Part shown: piece after piece, positions 175 to 49,549 of the stretch
Layout of the letters: each line of letters begins with the position of its first letter
Numbering within the stretch: the stretch's first letter is position 1
Origin: an uncultured Candidatus Saccharibacteria bacterium
GTDB taxonomy: Bacteria > Patescibacteriota > Minisyncoccia > Spechtbacterales > 2-12-FULL-38-22
Direction: 5' to 3'
Assembly (NCBI GenBank): GCA_964393575.1
Contig: CAYMUG010000002.1
Span: forward strand, 341 to 64,340
Length of the DNA stretch: 64,000 bases
Notes under the pieces: model-generated
The model's input: only the letters and a program-made list of their open reading frames with translations
What the model was told of the DNA's origin: nothing
Databases searched by the model: none
Position numbers and translations under genes: made by a program

Positions 175-798
175 TCACTTCCGAGTCCGAGCGGACGCCA
201 CACCGATGAAGTCGTCGCGAAGGTCGTCCCATAGGTGGCGGACGAGGAGATTCCACCCATCGAAGAAGCCGACGTTGAAGCGGCAGCCGACCAAGTGCAC
301 GGACGATGTCCTCACGTATACGTTCGGAACGAGACGGATACCCCGAACCTTGGCGTAGGTGGTTAAGAACCACGTTGCTTCGGCCGCGTTTGGAACGCGC
401 TCGTTGCCGTTGAGGAGAGCCTGCTGTTCATCCCACGTCTTGTTGATGGAATTGGGAGCAGGATCCTTGTGGACGACGAGCCACGTTGCCCCGACCGTGT
501 CGGAGCGAGCGAACGTCTGGCGATTGTCCGTGAACCACGGATCGTTCTTACGGTAGAAGAAATCCGTCGAGAGTTCGTGGATGTCCAGAAAGTTCATCTC
601 GTTCGGCGGGCCGGGAAGAACGGCGAAGCCGTTGTCGCGCGCCCACCGGAGCACTTTTTCTTCAGGAAGTGTCCATGCAAGCTCTTCGAGCTGCGTTGCG
701 GTGTACGGGGCGTCATACGCTTCTGCGACCTCCAGTGGTCTAATGAAGTCGTTACCAAGGATGTCGAAAGCTGGCTGAAACGTTGGAATGGTAGCCAT
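175..798 (-). CDS. hypothetical protein (207 aa) encoded in a GC-rich island
   Basis: It is a long ORF with AAGGAG 7 nt upstream of the ATG. Its GC content (~58%) is far above that of the rest of the window. I recognise no domain. Confidence 0.5.
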   Translation of the reverse strand: MATIPTFQPAFDILGNDFIRPLEVAEAYDAPYTATQLEELAWTLPEEKVLRWARDNGFAVLPGPPNEMNFLDIHELSTDFFYRKNDPWFTDNRQTFARSDTVGATWLVVHKDPAPNSINKTWDEQQALLNGNERVPNAAEATWFLTTYAKVRGIRLVPNVYVRTSSVHLVGCRFNVGFFDGWNLLVRHLWDDLRDDFIGVASARTRK

Positions 799-1539: not shown

Positions 1540-2523
1540 TTACCTCAGGCGTGAACCTATAATTTGTGGATGGCCTTTTAAAAATTCTTCGGATTTTACA
1601 GGATTTTTGCCCTCAAGTTGCACTTCTTCGGGGACAAAAATACCTTCTCCTGCCTGCACAGCGAATGAATTTTTGTATTTTTTAACAATACCCCGGGAAG
1701 AAGATTTTTTTTGACTTTCAGGGAATTCCGCGCGGCCGTTTAATATTTTAAGTTTTCTATTATTCCAATCAGTATAAATTCCGGGCCAAGGGGTAAAAGC
1801 GCGTAATTTCCTTTCTATAGTTAAGGCGGAACCTGTCCAATCAATTTTTCCGTGGTCACGCAAAATAACACCTGAATACGTAGCGTTTTGATGGTCCTGG
1901 TCCTGAGGGTCTATATTGCCGGAAACCCATTCGGGTATAGTTTCTATGAGCAATTCACCGCCTACGTGCGCTAATACATCACGTAATTCCGGAGCGGTAA
2001 TGTTATCCATTGTTTTATTTTTGTATTTTTGATGGTCGGCATTTGGTAATTCCAAAAGTTGTTGTGCAACTAGCGGTCCGTGGTCTATTTTTTCATCCAT
2101 TAAAATGATACTCACCCCCGTAACTTCATCTCCGTGCAGAATTGTATATTGAATGGGGGAAGGACCACGCCAACGAGGCAAGAGAGAGGGATGAACATTT
2201 AATGTTCCGTGTTCCGGGGCATCTAAAATTTTTTTGGGTAAAATTTTGCCATAATCAGCTACTATAAATAGTGAGTTGTGAGTAGCGATTAGTGAGTGAA
2301 AATCATCATCAAATTTCTCAGGTTGAGTTACTTTTATGCCTTCTTTTTCTGCCGTCAGTTTTACAGGAGGAGAAGTTAACTCCTTTTTTCTGCCGGTAGG
2401 TTTATCGGGCGTGGTCACAACCAAGCCCGGCTTATAACCGTTTTCTATGAGATGTTTTAGAATGATATCGGCAAATTCGGCGGTGCCGAAGAAGATAATG
2501 TTTATTTTATTCGTTTCACTCAT
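1540..2523 (-). CDS. fmt: methionyl-tRNA formyltransferase
   Basis: The N-terminal formyltransferase fold is present (IIFFGT, HPSLLPRWRG), followed by the C-terminal domain. It sits downstream of def. The start is taken at MSETNKIN (2523) rather than at the track's upstream M. Confidence 0.9.
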   Translation of the reverse strand: MSETNKINIIFFGTAEFADIILKHLIENGYKPGLVVTTPDKPTGRKKELTSPPVKLTAEKEGIKVTQPEKFDDDFHSLIATHNSLFIVADYGKILPKKILDAPEHGTLNVHPSLLPRWRGPSPIQYTILHGDEVTGVSIILMDEKIDHGPLVAQQLLELPNADHQKYKNKTMDNITAPELRDVLAHVGGELLIETIPEWVSGNIDPQDQDHQNATYSGVILRDHGKIDWTGSALTIERKLRAFTPWPGIYTDWNNRKLKILNGRAEFPESQKKSSSRGIVKKYKNSFAVQAGEGIFVPEEVQLEGKNPVKSEEFLKGHPQIIGSRLR

Positions 2524-2649
2524 AAAATAGTTACAAGTAACCTGTAACTCGTAACCAGTACAGGAAAGCACCTTCGGTGCTTTGATTTTAGTTCGTTACT
2601 TATTACTTGTTACAGATTACGATTAGAGAAGGGCCGAGGACGGGGTGGT

Positions 2650-3153
2650 TTAGATCCGCTCTGTAAACAGCACTCCGTTTAGATGGTCGGTTTCATGCTG
2701 AAATATACGAGCAAGGAGTCCCGTTGCCTCTACGGTAAATTTGCGTCCATCTTCATTTTGCGCTCTCAGGGTTACTTTATATGATCGGGGAGTAGGGTGA
2801 TATTTGCCTTTAATACTTAAACAACCTTCCTCTACTACCTCTTTATCTTCGCTGTATTCAATAATTTCCGGATTTATATAAACAGAAGGTTGTAGTGGTT
2901 TGAGTAATGATGCAGGAATAAAAATTGTCCTAACTTTAGGCGCGTATTCTTCGGGTATAACAAATACGCTTTTACTTACATTTATTTGAGGTGCAGCTAA
3001 GCCAGCCCCGTCTTCAGCACGCAGGGTTTTTCTCATTTCTTTTATTAAATTTTGAAGGTCAGGACTGTTAAAATCCGTTATTTTTTCTGCGGTTTTATGG
3101 AGAATGGGGTTGGGGTCCTGAACTACCTCCCTGATTTTATTCGTTTCGTTCAT
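2650..3153 (-). CDS. def: peptide deformylase
   Basis: The motifs GAGLAAPQ, EGCLS and HETDH are present. Confidence 0.92.
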   Translation of the reverse strand: MNETNKIREVVQDPNPILHKTAEKITDFNSPDLQNLIKEMRKTLRAEDGAGLAAPQINVSKSVFVIPEEYAPKVRTIFIPASLLKPLQPSVYINPEIIEYSEDKEVVEEGCLSIKGKYHPTPRSYKVTLRAQNEDGRKFTVEATGLLARIFQHETDHLNGVLFTERI

Positions 3154-3205: not shown

Positions 3206-5134
3206 TTATACCGCATCTTCGGGATCCACGTCTATATCCCAGTCAGAGGGAATTACACGCAGCATCCCGTTTCTTAGTTTTAGGTTTTTATCTTTTCCGG
3301 GCCATTTAATAAGCATATACCAGCTATGTTTACTAGCGACAGTCGGAGAGGGACCCAGTATTTGAATTTTGTTATGCCTCGCGGTAGTTGAATTTTGAGC
3401 TTTCAACTGTTCTATTTGGGTTTCTATTTTTTTCCGCAGAACCTTTGCTTCGTTTTCGGCCTTTTCTGGATTTTTATGGGTGTAACTTAATTTTATAAGC
3501 TGGGAGTAAGGAGGATAATTAAGAGCTTTTCTCTTTTTCAATTCTTCGGAAAAGAATTTTTCAAAATCCTTTTCTTTTGCGTGTTTAAATACATCCATAT
3601 CGGGGTGATACGTTTGTATAATACAATTTTTCTTTGCGATATATTTAAGATGCCACAGTATATTAAATACTTGTTCTTCAGCGTTGTACATAGGAAGGGT
3701 GAGTATTGCATCCTGCATTACCGACGCAGTGATATCAACATCCGGAAGAAGTGAAGGTTTTAAGGCAATATGTGTTCCTATAAGCACGTCCGCCTCATTC
3801 TTAAATGCCCGGAATGCATTATCACGATCTTTTTGAGTGGGTGCAGAATCGGAATCAAGGCGCACTGTTTTTAATTCCGGCATCAGCTTATTTATTTCTT
3901 CAGCAATTTTTTGTGTACCCCCTCCTAATTGTTTAATTCTATAACCTTTACATTTTTCACATACCTGCGGAGGAGTTGTTTTTTTACCACAATGATGGCA
4001 AATAAGCACATGTCCTTTGTGTAATACTAATGCTTTTTCACACTCTGAACATTCTTTGACAAACCCGCAATCTCTGCATACCAAGGCAGACGCCAACCCC
4101 CGTCTGTTTATAAAAAGCAGGGCTTTTTCTCCTGTGTTCATTGTTTTAAGTTGGTTTTGTAGATCTATACTTAGTAAGGAGGTGTTCTTTTCTTTAAGTT
4201 CATTACTCATATCTATGACGCGGGGAGAAACAGTACGGGGCATTTCTTTGTGTATCTCCCATCTTTCTTCATGCGCTTTTTTATATAGTTCCAGAGTAGG
4301 TAAAATATCACCGGTTATAAAATCAGCACCCCTTTTTTCGGCAATTACTCTGCTCACGTATCTTGCATCTATTTTAGGGTGTTGAGTATCCGATTTGTGG
4401 GAAGAATTATTATTTTCATCAAGTATAACAGCACTTAATTTTCTCATAGGAGAGAATATTACCGAGCGTGTACCTGCTAAGTTATTTATTTCTCCTTTGT
4501 ATGATCCTTCCCATAAATTGCGCCACCGGTTGCGCCCGGCATTTTTAGGCAGGGTTTCTACATCTTTTAAAATATTTTTTGCGTTTTTCAGGTTGTAATA
4601 CTCCGGAAAAATTAATAAATTTCCGTCGTCCCCTATATATTTTTTGTAAAGTTTGTTTTTGTGCGGCGATATGATTAGACGTTTTTTAGAAGAGGTTTTA
4701 TTTGTTGCAAACACCGGCTCCGGCAAATCTTCTAACATTTTTAGAAGCGGTTTTGTGGGGGTAGAAAAAAATGGAGGTAACATTCTCTGCATCATAAGTC
4801 CTACCGGTGTATAATAATAGTCCGCCAGATGAACTGCTAAATCCAAAAATTCTTTGCAGAAGATAGGTTTTTTAACTACTGCACGATTAATCTTTTTTAG
4901 TGTAAAACCCGCTTTTCTTATCTCTTGCTTTGCATTTTCCGCCTCCTGCTCTCTGTATATTATACCTTGTATATTTCTTTTACCCACCGGAGCTTCAATA
5001 ATCTGACCTGTATAAAATTTATTCACACTGAAATATGTAAGCATCTGCATGTGGGGGCGCGGTAATTTTGTTAAAGGTATGATTTTATATATATACATAC
5101 GAGCAACGGTATTTCTGTGTTTATATCTTATCAT
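3206..5134 (-). CDS. priA: primosomal protein N' (PriA) homolog with degenerate ATPase motifs
   Basis: The N-terminal 3'-DNA-binding region and the Cys-rich zinc-binding region (CRDCGF..CSECE..CHHCG..CEKCKG) are present and colinear with PriA. Walker A is replaced by SPHKNKL and DEEH by DENN. Confidence 0.8.
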   Translation of the reverse strand: MIRYKHRNTVARMYIYKIIPLTKLPRPHMQMLTYFSVNKFYTGQIIEAPVGKRNIQGIIYREQEAENAKQEIRKAGFTLKKINRAVVKKPIFCKEFLDLAVHLADYYYTPVGLMMQRMLPPFFSTPTKPLLKMLEDLPEPVFATNKTSSKKRLIISPHKNKLYKKYIGDDGNLLIFPEYYNLKNAKNILKDVETLPKNAGRNRWRNLWEGSYKGEINNLAGTRSVIFSPMRKLSAVILDENNNSSHKSDTQHPKIDARYVSRVIAEKRGADFITGDILPTLELYKKAHEERWEIHKEMPRTVSPRVIDMSNELKEKNTSLLSIDLQNQLKTMNTGEKALLFINRRGLASALVCRDCGFVKECSECEKALVLHKGHVLICHHCGKKTTPPQVCEKCKGYRIKQLGGGTQKIAEEINKLMPELKTVRLDSDSAPTQKDRDNAFRAFKNEADVLIGTHIALKPSLLPDVDITASVMQDAILTLPMYNAEEQVFNILWHLKYIAKKNCIIQTYHPDMDVFKHAKEKDFEKFFSEELKKRKALNYPPYSQLIKLSYTHKNPEKAENEAKVLRKKIETQIEQLKAQNSTTARHNKIQILGPSPTVASKHSWYMLIKWPGKDKNLKLRNGMLRVIPSDWDIDVDPEDAV

Positions 5135-5276: not shown

Positions 5277-5507
5277 ATGAGTGTAGTATTTTGGGTACTA
5301 GTAGTCATACTTGTTCTTGCCGCCGGAGCTTATTGGTGGTTCTTCATGCGAAAAGGAGGCGGTAATAAAGAACGTGTAGATTTTAAGGAAGAAGGTAAGT
5401 CTTCTTCACAGGAAGGAAGCCAAAAACAGGACATGGGAGGAGAGAAGAGCTCAACTGATCAAGGAGGTGATGACAACAAACAACAGCCTGGTCAGCCGGG
5501 TATGTAA
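5277..5507 (+). CDS. small membrane protein (one TM followed by a Gly/Gln/Ser-rich tail)
   Basis: ORF with a hydrophobic N-terminus, followed by a terminator. Confidence 0.4.
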   Translation: MSVVFWVLVVILVLAAGAYWWFFMRKGGGNKERVDFKEEGKSSSQEGSQKQDMGGEKSSTDQGGDDNKQQPGQPGM

Positions 5508-26259: not shown

Positions 26260-27210
26260 TTATTCTTCTCCGTTTTCACCGTGGAGTTTTTTGTGTATTT
26301 CTTTCAGGCGCTTGTTGGTTACGTGGGTGTAAACCTGGGTTGTAGCTATATTTTTATGACCCAAAAATTCCTGTACTGTTCGCAGGTCAGCCCCTTTAGA
26401 GAGTAGGTCGGTGGCAAATGTGTGGCGCAGAACATGCGGGGTAACATTAACCGGCAGAGCTGCCATTTTAGCGTAACGATTAATCGCGTTTTGTATGTAA
26501 CGCGGAGACAGGCGCTTGTCTTTGTTTTTAGAGCGATAGTTTATAAATAGCGGTTTTTCCATATCCGTGCGGGTGTTGTCATATTCTTTCATCCATTTTA
26601 AAGCTCTGGGTGAAAAGAACACCGTACGGGGTCTCTCGCCCTTGCCGGTTATATTAAGCTCCAGTGTATTTTCAACCTGCCTCAAGTTAATTTGTTCCCG
26701 GTCCAAATTCACAAGTTCCGCAATACGCATTCCCGTAGAAAACAACACTTCCATAATAGCACGATCCCGCAGGCCTGCGCGTGTATTGGTGTCCGGCATT
26801 GAAAGAAGCTTTTCTACTTGCTCCCCGGTTAAAAATTTAACGGAATCTTTGTCCGTTCCCTTGGGCAGCTTTATTTTAGTTGAGGGGAGGGAGTTTATAT
26901 CACGGTCGGCAAAATAATCCAAAAGGGCTCTTAGCGATACAAGATAGTAATTCTGTGTTTTTCGGGAGAGATTTTGATTGTCCCGTGTTTTATATTTGCG
27001 CGCAAGGAACAACCTATAATTCCATACCTCCTCTGCCGTTAGCTGGTGGGGGAGTAAATCTTCTTTTTTCTCGTCCCGCAGCCATTTTTTAAAAGTTTCC
27101 AGGTATCTTTGATAGTTTTCCTGGGTTTTATTACTCAAACCTTTTTCTATTTCACAGTAATCCAGAAAATCAGGTATATGTTGCATAATTGTTTTTTTTG
27201 ATTTTTGCAT
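26260..27210 (-). CDS. tyrosine recombinase, XerC/XerD family
   Basis: An N-terminal core-binding region is present, together with R...HVLRHTFAT...LGHKNIATTQVYTHV catalytic motifs. The start is taken at MQKSKK. Confidence 0.8.
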   Translation of the reverse strand: MQKSKKTIMQHIPDFLDYCEIEKGLSNKTQENYQRYLETFKKWLRDEKKEDLLPHQLTAEEVWNYRLFLARKYKTRDNQNLSRKTQNYYLVSLRALLDYFADRDINSLPSTKIKLPKGTDKDSVKFLTGEQVEKLLSMPDTNTRAGLRDRAIMEVLFSTGMRIAELVNLDREQINLRQVENTLELNITGKGERPRTVFFSPRALKWMKEYDNTRTDMEKPLFINYRSKNKDKRLSPRYIQNAINRYAKMAALPVNVTPHVLRHTFATDLLSKGADLRTVQEFLGHKNIATTQVYTHVTNKRLKEIHKKLHGENGEE

Positions 27211-27355
27211 AAGGGGAGTAGAAGAATTAGTTATATGAATAGGTTCGCACAATATAGGTAAAGCGAATTATGTACTTCTTTTTATTATATATACACACTT
27301 TTTTATAGTCAAACCCTATTTATCCTTAAATATATTTATAGATAATATAATAATT

Positions 27356-47456: not shown

Positions 47457-48416
47457 TTGCCTAAAGTTCCCGCTCCCGTTGTTGTGGCGATCGTTATTTC
47501 AATTCTCGCGCTATGCGGTGCGGGATTTGTTGTTTTTAAGAAGAACGCTGAAGCCGAACAAGCTCGACTTCAGAATCAGCTTGAGCATTCGCAATCTCGA
47601 GCTGATACTTTGAAAAGCACTGTTGACGATATCTCCCCAAAGGTGAAGTCACTAAAAACCCGCGCCGAAGAGGCCGAAGAGTTAGAAAAAGAGAACTCCC
47701 GACTAAGGAAGGAGCTTAACAAAGAGAGAACAACCACGGAAACAACACAAACCAGAACGGAAGAAGAAGAGGAGAAGGAAGAGGAAGAGGTTTCTGAAAC
47801 ACCTTCCTCTTCATCGCCCAACCCCTCGCCTACACCGGAACCCAATCGGGTTCGCGGTCATGGCGAAAAGATGGTTTTGACGTTTGATGATGGAGGTGCG
47901 CCAAATAAAGTCACGGCCATTCTGAACATTCTGAACAATAAAAATGTTCAAGCTGTGATGTTCCTGAACGGAAGATGGGCACACGCCCATCCCGACTTAG
48001 TTCGCCGTATGCGAGCCGAGGGACATATCGTAGCAAACCATACTTGGTCTCACGCGAAGCTCACCGAACTTCCCGATGAGGAAGTTCGGAGGGAAATCCG
48101 GCGTGGCGCGCAGGAAGGTTCGGATCTGTTCCGCCCTCCGTACGGAGCCATTGATGCCCGTGTTCGCGGCATTGTGCAAAGCATGGGTCTTCGGACTATG
48201 CTCTGGGACATTGACACCCGCGACTGGGACAACACCTCGGCAGACGAGATTACCCGGATCACACTGAATAACGCCCGGCCGGGAGCTGTAGTGCTTCTGC
48301 ATCTCCACGGAGAACATACCGCAGAAGCGTTGCCGCGCATGATCGACGGTCTGCGCAATCAGGGCTATACATTTGGCCTTCCCGCCCCCGAGAAGGAGGA
48401 AAGTAATGCTACGTAA
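47457..48416 (+). CDS. polysaccharide deacetylase (CE4/NodB) with N-terminal TM, coiled coil and an acidic/Pro-rich linker
   Basis: The NodB motifs TFDDG, HTWSH and RPPYG are present. The gene is GC-rich. Confidence 0.8.
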   Translation: MPKVPAPVVVAIVISILALCGAGFVVFKKNAEAEQARLQNQLEHSQSRADTLKSTVDDISPKVKSLKTRAEEAEELEKENSRLRKELNKERTTTETTQTRTEEEEEKEEEEVSETPSSSSPNPSPTPEPNRVRGHGEKMVLTFDDGGAPNKVTAILNILNNKNVQAVMFLNGRWAHAHPDLVRRMRAEGHIVANHTWSHAKLTELPDEEVRREIRRGAQEGSDLFRPPYGAIDARVRGIVQSMGLRTMLWDIDTRDWDNTSADEITRITLNNARPGAVVLLHLHGEHTAEALPRMIDGLRNQGYTFGLPAPEKEESNAT

Positions 48417-48696
48417 AAAGTTGGTAGCTGCCATACTGATGGCCGTACTCGCAACAGCGAGTGCTGCCTCAGCAGCCCATGAGGTAATTGAGGCAAGCGA
48501 CCTCCGGGAAGAGAATACTCAACTTCAGGATGAAGTTGAATCACTTTCCGAGGAGCGTGAAACCCTTGAACGCTTCGCTCGGCTCCAAGAAAAACACGAA
48601 GAGCTGAGCGGGAAAGCGAAGAAAACCGACCAGAAAGTGCGAGATCTGAAAGAGAAAAAAACAGGGCTTACGCGAGCATTGGAGGAGCACCGATGA
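48406..48696 (+). CDS. small membrane-anchored coiled-coil protein
   Basis: ORF with a TM segment and heptad repeats. GC-rich. Confidence 0.45.
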   Translation: MLRKKLVAAILMAVLATASAASAAHEVIEASDLREENTQLQDEVESLSEERETLERFARLQEKHEELSGKAKKTDQKVRDLKEKKTGLTRALEEHR

Positions 48697-49442
48697 GAAA
48701 CGAATTTTTCGCTAGAGTCAATTTCTTCGTTGGCTTTACTGCAATCACGGCGATCATTGTCGCCGTTAGTGCCGCTTTGCTCCTCGTCACGAACGTCGAG
48801 GAGCCCCAACAGGCCAATGCTCAGCTAAAAGAGCAGAAGGCCGAGCTCTCTAGCAGCGTCAGCGAGATGCGCGAAAAGCATAAGGTGAGCGGGAAGCCTT
48901 CCCTCTCTCCTCAGGTTTCTGAACTCGAGGAGGGGGTTCAGAGACTTCGCTCGGAGGTCGGTACTCTTTCGGGGAAAAAGAAAAACCTCGAAAAAGAGGT
49001 TGCCGGACTTCGTGAGAATGTGCGCGAAGCCCGGGAAGCCCGGGAAGCCAGAGAAGCCGAAGAGAGGCAATCCCAATCCCGCCAGAGTCAGAGCGCTCAT
49101 AGCGGTCGCACTCCGGCAAGTGCGCGGGCACTCGGCCGCCAGATGGCCGCCCAACGAGGTTGGGCAGGCCGTCAGTGGCCATGCCTGAATGAGCTCTGGA
49201 GACGGGAAAGTGGATGGCGCTATAACATCCAAAACCATACCCACCGGCGCCAAGGTCGAGCTATAGAAAACTCGGCCTACGGAATCCCGCAGGCGTTACC
49301 TGGCAGGAAAATGGCCAGCCACGGCGGCGACTGGCGCACCAACCCACGTACACAGATAGCGTGGGGGTTGGACTACATCGCCGACCGTTATGGAACGCCG
49401 TGCAACGCACTGGCATTCCATAACCGAAAAAACTGGTACTGA
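48693..49442 (+). CDS. membrane-anchored coiled-coil protein with a C-terminal lysozyme-like (SLT/GH23-like) transglycosylase domain
   Basis: C-terminal W.CL..LW.RESGW...N......SAYGIPQA...WGLDYI..RYG.PC resembles actinobacterial SLT-type domains. Encodes REAREAREA in its coiled-coil region. GC-rich. Confidence 0.5.
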   Translation: MRNEFFARVNFFVGFTAITAIIVAVSAALLLVTNVEEPQQANAQLKEQKAELSSSVSEMREKHKVSGKPSLSPQVSELEEGVQRLRSEVGTLSGKKKNLEKEVAGLRENVREAREAREAREAEERQSQSRQSQSAHSGRTPASARALGRQMAAQRGWAGRQWPCLNELWRRESGWRYNIQNHTHRRQGRAIENSAYGIPQALPGRKMASHGGDWRTNPRTQIAWGLDYIADRYGTPCNALAFHNRKNWY

Positions 49443-49452
49443 CGCTCCAGAA

Positions 49453-49549
49453 GAGAGGGGGAGTCGGTACTCAGGTGAGTACCGACTCCCCCTCTCGACC
49501 TGTTCTTTAGTAAAAAGGTCCCCGCAAGTTATATACTGCGGGGTTTTTT
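49453..49549 (+). terminator. strong 19-bp-stem GC hairpin (49453-49494) followed by the terminator ccccgc-aagttatatact-gcgggg + T6
   Basis: Read directly. Confidence 0.6.

Follow-up and report, generated by a model that had tools for sequence, protein, structure and literature searches.

The stretch of DNA analyzed here (64,000 nucleotides of contig CAYMUG010000002.1, hereafter the window) contains one PriA-like gene, a single uninterrupted open reading frame (ORF) of 642 codons on the minus strand (positions 3206–5134). Its true start is probably M13 (MYIYKIIPL, nucleotide 5098), since the homologs all begin at that codon, which gives a protein of 630 amino acids (aa); residue numbers refer to the 642 aa as called. 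The nearest named relatives of the protein belong to Candidatus Spechtbacteria/Spechtbacterales (Parcubacteria group, Patescibacteria), and the gene is the PriA ortholog of a host that is itself Spechtbacteria/Spechtbacterales-like. The product is PriA by descent and architecture, and its motif content predicts that it is not a PriA helicase.

The protein as a whole passes the curated equivalog model TIGR00595 ‘priA’ with 292.1 bits (cutoff, 230.35), and it scores under the cutoff of every lineage-specific sub-model of PRK05580. Pfam identifies the PriA 3′ DNA-binding domain (3′BD; PF17764, PriA_3primeBD) at residues 25–120 (positions 4775–5062, minus strand as for all parts of the gene; 42.4 bits, cutoff 22.7) and the PriA C-terminal domain (CTD; PF18074, PriA_C) at residues 542–638 (3221–3511; 30.1 bits, cutoff 26.9), the latter including W632 and the terminal DVDP motif (P638). 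The PriA zinc ribbon remains below threshold (21 bits against 26), and no DEAD or Helicase_C domain is found in the protein by the Pfam scan. The PriA chains of Escherichia coli and Klebsiella from solved structures match residues 193–638 with E-values of ~1e-44. The cysteine-rich region (CRR; residues 353–397, 3944–4078) contains eight cysteines (C353, C356, C362, C365, C379, C382, C392, and C395) that form four CxxC pairs, a pattern that fits two zinc sites. All eight are invariant in alignments A1–A3 (18 sequences in A2 and 10 in A3), and Y34 and G43 of the 3′BD are universally conserved.

An AlphaFold2 (AF2) model built from a 25-sequence alignment has a mean predicted local distance difference test score (pLDDT) of 87.2 and a predicted template modeling score (pTM) of 0.87. 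Its top Foldseek matches in the PDB are all PriA (8fak, 6dcr, 6dgd, 4nl4, and 4nl8; template modeling (TM) scores of 0.70–0.77, E-values of 1e-31 to 1e-42), and the next matches, to Mfd, RecQ, and WRN, have E-values weaker by more than 20 orders of magnitude. The superfamily 2 (SF2) helicase core fold, with its two RecA-like lobes, is thus present in the predicted structure. Among the best structural matches ranks 6dcr, an engineered PriA from which the winged-helix domain was deleted, and alignment to the PriA of E. coli MG1655 shows this domain to be absent, with a 75-residue gap facing E. coli residues ~108–182. The winged-helix domain is likewise missing from compact candidate-phyla PriAs that keep an intact ATP site; therefore, its loss is not specific to the motif-less PriAs, nor is the domain universal to the family.

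Motifs I, II, III, and VI were tested as the PriA catalytic set, and all four are absent. Motif I (Walker A) is reduced to a remnant at residues 154–163 (IISPHKNKLY; 4646–4675). The string SPHKNKLYKKY (residues 156–166) sits opposite GVTGSGKTEVY, and a gapped alignment, in which IIS is followed by a three-residue gap and then by PHKNKLY, shows that the glycine-rich loop has been deleted and that the site is 3–4 residues shorter. At the equivalents of E. coli residues 224–231, G224 is deleted, G227 and G229 are replaced by S and H, respectively, K230 corresponds to K157, and T231 is replaced by N. In the AF2 model, the Walker A site is predicted to consist of a strand (residues 151–155), a three-residue turn, and a helix (residues 159–164). 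A P-loop nucleoside triphosphatase needs an eight-residue loop at this site.

The remaining nucleotide-serving motifs have fared no better. In motif II (residues 236–243, VILDENNN; 4406–4429), DENN takes the place of DEEH: VILDENNNSSHK (residues 236–247) pairs with E. coli VVIDEEHDSSYK, and D319, E320, E321, and H322 correspond to D239, E240, N241, and N242. Motif III (residues 272–282, FITGDILPTLE; 4289–4321) reads GDILP against the canonical GSATP of the GSATPS signature. Motif V (residues 450–475; 3710–3787) retains its N-terminal part (VLIGT) and has lost its nucleotide-facing, C-terminal part, with KPSLLP against E. coli KGHHFP. Of motif VI (residues 492–502, ILWHLKYIAKK; 3629–3661), the canonical QVAGRAGR is reduced to H and L, a 5-residue gap, and K, so that the QxxGRxGR signature is gone and both arginine fingers are lost. 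Motif Ia (residues 173–184; 4583–4618) is also degenerate, reading LLIFPEYYNLKN against canonical PriA LLLVPEISLTPQ. A pattern search returned no [GA]x4GK[ST], DExH/D, or GRxGR string anywhere in the protein or in any other frame of that strand. The opposite strand has a single loose P-loop match, ANTGSGKS, which does not fall within a long ORF and is attributed to chance.

Because the P-loop is short and glycine-free, DEEH is altered, motif III is changed, and the arginine fingers of motif VI are deleted, the protein is most likely unable to bind or hydrolyze ATP and to translocate on or unwind DNA. Alternatively, it could still be an active ATPase or helicase by way of a noncanonical site, formed by K157, D239, and E240 or corresponding to the second, weak nucleotide site that has been proposed for PriA. 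The three residues do align with E. coli K230, D319, and E320. However, the glycine-rich loop around the first of them is physically deleted, T231 has become N, and H322, motif III, and both arginines of motif VI are absent. Nor are the three residues conserved in relatives, in which R, K, or N occupies the first position and motif II reads ENEN, DNEN, EKEN, or DGEN, and the columns of the ATP motifs show background conservation. In E. coli PriA, in which the rest of the site is intact, a change of K230 alone (K230R) already abolishes ATPase as well as helicase and translocase activity (PMC5778457, PMC4504706). Persistence of a working motor is accordingly very improbable.

An earlier, sequence-only reading of this DNA had described the gene as a priA homolog with abolished Walker A and DEEH motifs. 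Each of the domains it listed (3′-DNA-binding domain, helicase lobes, Cys4-Cys4 zinc region, and C-terminal domain) is recovered by Pfam, the AF2 model, or alignment, and the colinearity with PriA that it reported holds overall, except for the missing winged-helix domain. Its placement of SPHKNKLYKKY opposite GVTGSGKTEVY agrees with the alignment to E. coli PriA, although the gapped version given above is better, and the abolished DEEH is likewise borne out. Its account of the damage was correct for motifs I and II but incomplete, as motif III, the C-terminal part of motif V, and motif VI are also gone. An intact GxGKT, which might have lain elsewhere in the protein, was looked for there and not found.

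What selection has kept can be read from a comparison of 138 motif-less, candidate-phyla-type PriAs with 108 canonical PriAs, in which conservation is scored as the frequency of each column's commonest residue, averaged over columns. Over all columns, this background value is 0.51 in the canonical and 0.45 in the motif-less group. The motifs of the ATP site drop from 0.96 to 0.44 (motif I), 0.94 to 0.47 (motif II), 0.92 to 0.51 (motif III), 0.72 to 0.37 (C-terminal part of motif V), and 0.86 to 0.32 (motif VI), and motif Ia drops from 0.84 to 0.36. In contrast, motif Ib (GTRSA), which contacts DNA and reads LAGTRSVIFSP here (residues 219–229; 4448–4480), changes from 0.85 to 0.76, motif IV (FINRRG; residues 339–349, LLFINRRGLAS; 4088–4120) from 0.86 to 0.75, motif IVa (GxGTQ; residues 402–411, QLGGGTQKIA; 3902–3931) from 0.79 to 0.71, and the N-terminal part of motif V (LIGTQ) from 0.88 to 0.65. 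The aromatic-rich loop (motif IIa; 0.62 and 0.55 in the two groups) has its equivalent at residues 244–261 (SSHKSDTQHPKIDARYVS; 4352–4405), where P253, A261, and the K..P[KR]xxAR pattern are retained. Thus, the ATP-site motifs have sunk to the background of the motif-less group, and most DNA-contacting motifs hold.

Outside the helicase motifs, the eight cysteines are conserved in 100% of the 138 motif-less homologs, and the IQT, RxxxxYPPF, and DVDP signatures are at least as conserved as in real helicases. The canonical and motif-less groups share 44 columns in which the same residue is conserved at ≥80%, all eight cysteines included. The motif-less group also has conserved residues of its own, most of which lie in the 3′BD (P20, L21, P25, Q30, F35, and K69); the others include W249, which belongs to the aromatic-rich loop, and W632 of the CTD. 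Within Spechtbacterales, PriA diverges to an extent similar to its neighbors, with identities of 39–47% for PriA, 39–51% for Fmt, and 42–45% for the neighboring glycosyltransferase. Given this divergence, which resembles that of Fmt and the glycosyltransferase, and the selective nature of the conservation, the pattern reads as that of a functional protein minus one activity and not as that of a decaying gene.

The loss of motifs extends far beyond the gene in the window. In a protein homology search that covered 5.8 billion proteins, the closest homologs (P0002–P0010; 37–47% identity) have no precomputed DEAD or Helicase_C match and carry the same degenerate strings. A pattern-based scan of GTDB, with one genome per species and seeded by the 10-sequence alignment A3, showed that motifs I, II, and VI are missing in all seven of the closest loci, which belong to four Spechtbacterales, the curated Parcubacteria genome GW2011_GWA2_38_13b, one metagenome-assembled genome (MAG) labeled ‘Saccharibacteria’, and one Patescibacteria MAG. 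The same scan found loci in Peribacteria, Peregrinibacteria, and some other Patescibacteria in which all three motifs are kept. HMMER, run exhaustively against 1.84 billion cluster representatives, yielded 15,037 PriA-like proteins. Among the 150 nearest representatives of 50%-identity clusters, motifs I, II, and VI are all missing from 119 and all present in 19; in the other 12, one or more of the motifs has no strict match, some of these proteins being true intermediates (e.g., with DEEH only) and others having a near-strict Walker A. Of 10 motif-less clusters that were looked up, 3 carry a name, which in two cases is a taxon (Spechtbacteria and the Parcubacteria group). A P-loop-like string occurs in 1 of 145 motif-less sequences, and this string, CHYCGKT, falls within the zinc finger and is a chance occurrence.

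As an alternative, the gene could be a decaying pseudogene or an artifact of sequencing or assembly, but the motif loss itself is all that speaks for such an origin. The 642-codon ORF is unbroken, and an independent Logan assembly of run SRR9010616 contains an identical 642-aa protein with the same neighbors. Because the protein is identical in this assembly and relatives share the degeneracy, sequencing error is excluded. The 44 columns conserved in both groups, the high-confidence AF2 model, and a loss common to at least 119 clusters complete the refutation, and the probability left to either form of this explanation is negligible.

In a neighbor-joining (NJ) tree, computed in numpy from an FFT-NS-2 alignment and serving as a rough guide only, the motif-less proteins of candidate phyla form one large block that adjoins the intact compact PriAs. 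Between the two lie transitional forms, for example P0205, which has GVTSSGKT and QACGRTAR, and P0168 and P0233, which retain DEEH only. Together with P0250, these forms suggest that motifs I and VI are the first to decay and DEEH the last. As the motif-less proteins evolve fast, long-branch attraction could make them look more monophyletic than they are, and no number of losses within the candidate phyla is claimed. The compact canonical PriAs of Peribacteria, Peregrinibacteria, Torokbacteria, and CPR2 (L008–L011, L013, P0018, and P0194) are the closest intact relatives of the protein, to which they are 27–30% identical. Like it, they are small (~650–690 aa) and have no winged-helix domain; unlike it, they keep GxTGSGKT, DEEH, GSATPS, and QVxGRxGR and evolve more slowly.

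A separate set of PriAs (L012 and L065, from MAGs labeled ‘bacterium’, and P0207, P0086, P0238, P0209, and P0165) retains DEEH and motif VI with an altered Walker A, in which the glycines vary (GVTASGKT, GVTSSGKT, GVTNSGKT, or EVTGSGKT) or no strict match is found. These variants may be early stages of decay or tolerated substitutions.

The GTDB scan also recovered eight loci from Nitrospirota/Nitrospira (L020, L029, L037, L041, L046, L055, L056, and L064), and Walker A and motif VI are missing in all eight. The strings at the motif positions are of the kind APWEQRVIRL, IEGDEDPA, and EAVSVARP, and P0098, P0099, P0108, P0033, P0041, and P0039 belong to the same type. In the NJ tree, these PriAs group separately from the candidate-phyla block; they are longer, and at least one (P0099) has sequence in the winged-helix region. 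By these sequence features, Nitrospirota are possibly another, independent lineage of pseudohelicase PriAs.

In the window, priA is followed directly and on the same strand by def, which encodes peptide deformylase (2650–3153, minus strand), and then by fmt, which encodes methionyl-tRNA formyltransferase (1540–2571, minus strand), in the classical priA-def-fmt order. This order is common to the motif-less loci L001–L005 and L007 (Spechtbacterales and others) and also surrounds canonical priA genes in Chloroflexota, Armatimonadota, and other bacteria. Since the order is the same at canonical loci of other phyla, the motif-less gene holds the ancestral priA position. Downstream def/fmt genes were recorded at L001–L005, L007, L012, L014, L016, L017, and L019, which are either motif-less or of the canonical Chloroflexota/Armatimonadota type. 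At the loci of the intact compact PriAs (L008–L011 and L013, from Peribacteria, Peregrinibacteria, and others), no def or fmt lies within 6 kb downstream. Among candidate phyla, synteny has been lost where the motor was kept and kept where the motor was lost.

Upstream of priA and divergent from it are a small ORF of 76 aa and a block of glycosyltransferase and cell-envelope genes. The small ORF (5277–5507, plus strand) encodes one predicted membrane helix and a tail rich in Gly, Ser, Gln, and Asp. It has a counterpart at the same place in L001 (48% identical), and gene calling in the independent assembly L068 includes it.

The position of the gene bears on the possibility that it is a neofunctionalized extra copy, active in fork protection, blocking, or regulation, and that a canonical PriA encoded elsewhere in the genome carries out restart. 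Only 64 kb of the genome are in view, and related bacteria do have canonical compact PriAs, which a search seeded by one of them, P0194, found in Patescibacteria, Parcubacteria, Torokbacteria, and CPR2. The motif-less clade also has conserved residues of its own and evolves faster, with a median corrected distance of 1.45 against 1.19 for canonical PriAs. Against an extra copy stands the ancestral priA-def-fmt position, which the gene shares with the canonical PriAs of other phyla. Each motif-less genome yielded one locus in the GTDB scan, although its patterns could miss a divergent copy, and no match to P0194 is named Spechtbacteria, a weak negative as most of its matches are unnamed. In addition, candidate-phyla genomes are small and seldom keep paralogs. 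That the gene is an additional copy is thus unlikely.

ATPase-dead PriA has a precedent, and the Deinococcus case cited in the sequence-only reading is genuine. The PriA of D. radiodurans has been shown experimentally to lack ATPase and helicase activity and to bind single-stranded DNA (ssDNA), forks, and DnaB (Lopper, Boone and Morrow 2015, PMC4504706). The same work noted pseudohelicase PriA for 17 Deinococcus-Thermus species (PMC4504706), and a 2018 review treats the Deinococcus case as the sole exception (PMC5778457). The present protein resembles that of D. radiodurans in being a PriA ortholog with motifs I and II off consensus, and the concept of restart scaffolding without unwinding is common to both. 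The differences lie in the depth of decay and in the lineage. In Deinococcus-Thermus, the lysine of GKT is replaced by arginine and motif II is poor, whereas here the glycine-rich loop and motif VI are deleted and motif III and the C-terminal part of motif V are gone; the lineage is Patescibacteria/Parcubacteria, and the protein is compact (~630 aa) with no winged-helix domain. On the basis of taxonomy and of the intact compact PriAs that adjoin the motif-less block in the NJ tree, the loss is expected to be independent of that in Deinococcus-Thermus. In full-text literature searches, no earlier account of motif-less PriA turned up for candidate phyla, Patescibacteria, or Nitrospirota, and in the one paper that contains both PriA and Patescibacteria, priA figures only as a neighbor gene in phylum UBP6. 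Hence, the pseudohelicase concept is already known from Deinococcus, and what is new is the candidate-phyla lineage and the scale.

With canonical PriA (E. coli and Klebsiella pneumoniae; 4nl4, 6dgd, and 8fak), the protein shares the 3′BD, the two RecA-like lobes, the two-zinc insertion in lobe 2, and the CTD, as well as motifs Ib, IV, IVa, and part of V, the fold (TM 0.72–0.77), and the priA-def-fmt neighborhood of many phyla. Walker A, DEEH, SAT, QxxGRxGR, and the winged-helix domain are missing. In E. coli PriA, PriB docks on S481, T482, and H483; conservation of these residues is lacking here, which is expected for lineages other than PriB-bearing bacteria. Laboratory counterparts exist in the E. 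coli PriA variants K230R/A/D (priA300), which are ATPase-dead primosome assemblers, and in 6dcr, a PriA minus its winged-helix domain. These are, however, point or domain mutants of an intact enzyme and rely on PriB and DnaT, neither of which is expected in this organism.

E. coli cells with priA300 (K230R) are near wild type, and their primosomes are still assembled, with restart proceeding via the PriA-PriB pathway; only the PriA-PriC route and certain special substrates require the helicase (PMC5778457, PMC4504706). In vitro DnaB-loading assays even use PriA K230A (PMC10175261). Cryo-electron microscopy of fork-bound PriA shows the 3′BD gripping the nascent leading strand's 3′ end, the aromatic-rich loop of lobe 1 wedged at the junction, and the CRR, lobe 2 (HD2), and CTD closing a pore around the lagging-strand ssDNA (PMC10175261; for the function of the aromatic-rich loop, PMC5175346).

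These fork-binding elements are the ones retained here, the loop in modified form, and the motifs that serve only the nucleotide are lost, which is why a scaffolding role is favored. The protein is quite probably a PriA pseudohelicase that recognizes forks and nucleates helicase reloading without unwinding DNA. From the motifs and their conservation, we infer that ATPase activity is absent and that forks are bound and DnaB recruited. The two RecA-like lobes would still fold around a dismantled nucleotide pocket, and the parts that have been kept appear to be those by which E. coli PriA recognizes an abandoned fork and encloses the lagging-strand template. In the proposed mechanism, the 3′BD would hold the nascent leading strand's 3′ end, and motifs Ib, IV, and IVa and the N-terminal part of motif V would contact DNA, aided by an aromatic-rich loop kept in modified form, the two-zinc CRR, and the CTD. 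Binding to abandoned forks and D-loops would be structure-specific and ATP-independent, and the bound protein could then act as a landing pad for the reloading of DnaB, either directly, as reported for D. radiodurans PriA, or via partners encoded outside the window. In this it would parallel the K230 mutants of E. coli PriA and the D. radiodurans protein. The clade-specific surfaces of the dead core and the 3′BD could be the docking site for such a helicase-loading partner. A protein of this kind would not clear a duplex lagging arm, and restart would be possible only at forks where ssDNA is already exposed, or would rely on another helicase. All the sequence, structural, and comparative data are in line with an ATPase-dead PriA ortholog whose DNA- and zinc-binding parts are kept, and they support the structure-specific loader proposed in the sequence-only reading.

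Several observations weigh against this pseudohelicase function: (i) K157, D239, and E240 are kept in this protein, and residual nucleotide binding is possible; (ii) the missing winged-helix domain contacts parental duplex DNA in E. coli PriA; (iii) motif Ia, which normally contacts DNA, is degenerate along with the ATP-site motifs; (iv) the protein departs from its own clade in the aromatic-rich loop, where I251 replaces the F or Y of relatives and W249 is missing; and (v) the view of the genome is limited to the window, beyond which DnaB, a loader, the ssDNA-binding protein (SSB), or a second, intact priA could lie.

At the level of lineages, the evidence on balance favors motor loss as the normal state of PriA across a large candidate-phyla (Parcubacteria-type) radiation and, independently, in Nitrospirota. 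If so, restart in these organisms would proceed without fork remodeling by PriA, and loss of the motor is no oddity of Deinococcus but the norm in a large candidate-phyla radiation, contrary to the textbook view that the helicase motifs are conserved everywhere except in Deinococcus. The trait belongs to a very large candidate-phyla clade and not to one gene: at least 119 50%-identity clusters of PriA orthologs in a major uncultured radiation have an erased ATP site, and Nitrospirota are a probable further group. These proteins offer a clear-cut case from nature, not a new mechanism, and their main value lies in their scale. As natural replicates, they allow one to ask what the helicase of PriA is for and what the minimal restart function is, and they map the surfaces that appear indispensable (3′BD, motifs Ib, IV, and IVa, part of motif V, zinc region, and CTD). 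They also point to bacteria with reduced genomes that may reload the helicase without PriB, DnaT, or fork unwinding. Annotated plainly as ‘primosomal protein N′’, such proteins would be miscounted as helicases in inventories of metabolism and repair.

Elsewhere in the window, scans with Rfam and for tRNAs returned no tRNA, rRNA, or other Rfam family over the 64 kb, and a strict GxxGxGK[ST] P-loop string occurs in none of the six frames of the whole window. The left end (positions 1–1100) is GC-rich (0.47 over the first 2 kb) and contains a 207-aa ORF with no Pfam match (175–798, minus strand). A GC-rich island at 47700–49500, with a GC content of 0.48–0.61 compared with ~0.39 elsewhere in the window, comprises a polysaccharide deacetylase gene (47457–48416), a short ORF (48373–48696), and a coiled-coil ORF (48693–49442). 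The island may be horizontally acquired DNA or a chimera of assembly or binning. A tyrosine recombinase gene (26260–27252, minus strand) encodes a Phage_integrase domain and an N-terminal SAM-like domain, and its product could be XerC/D-like or an integrase.

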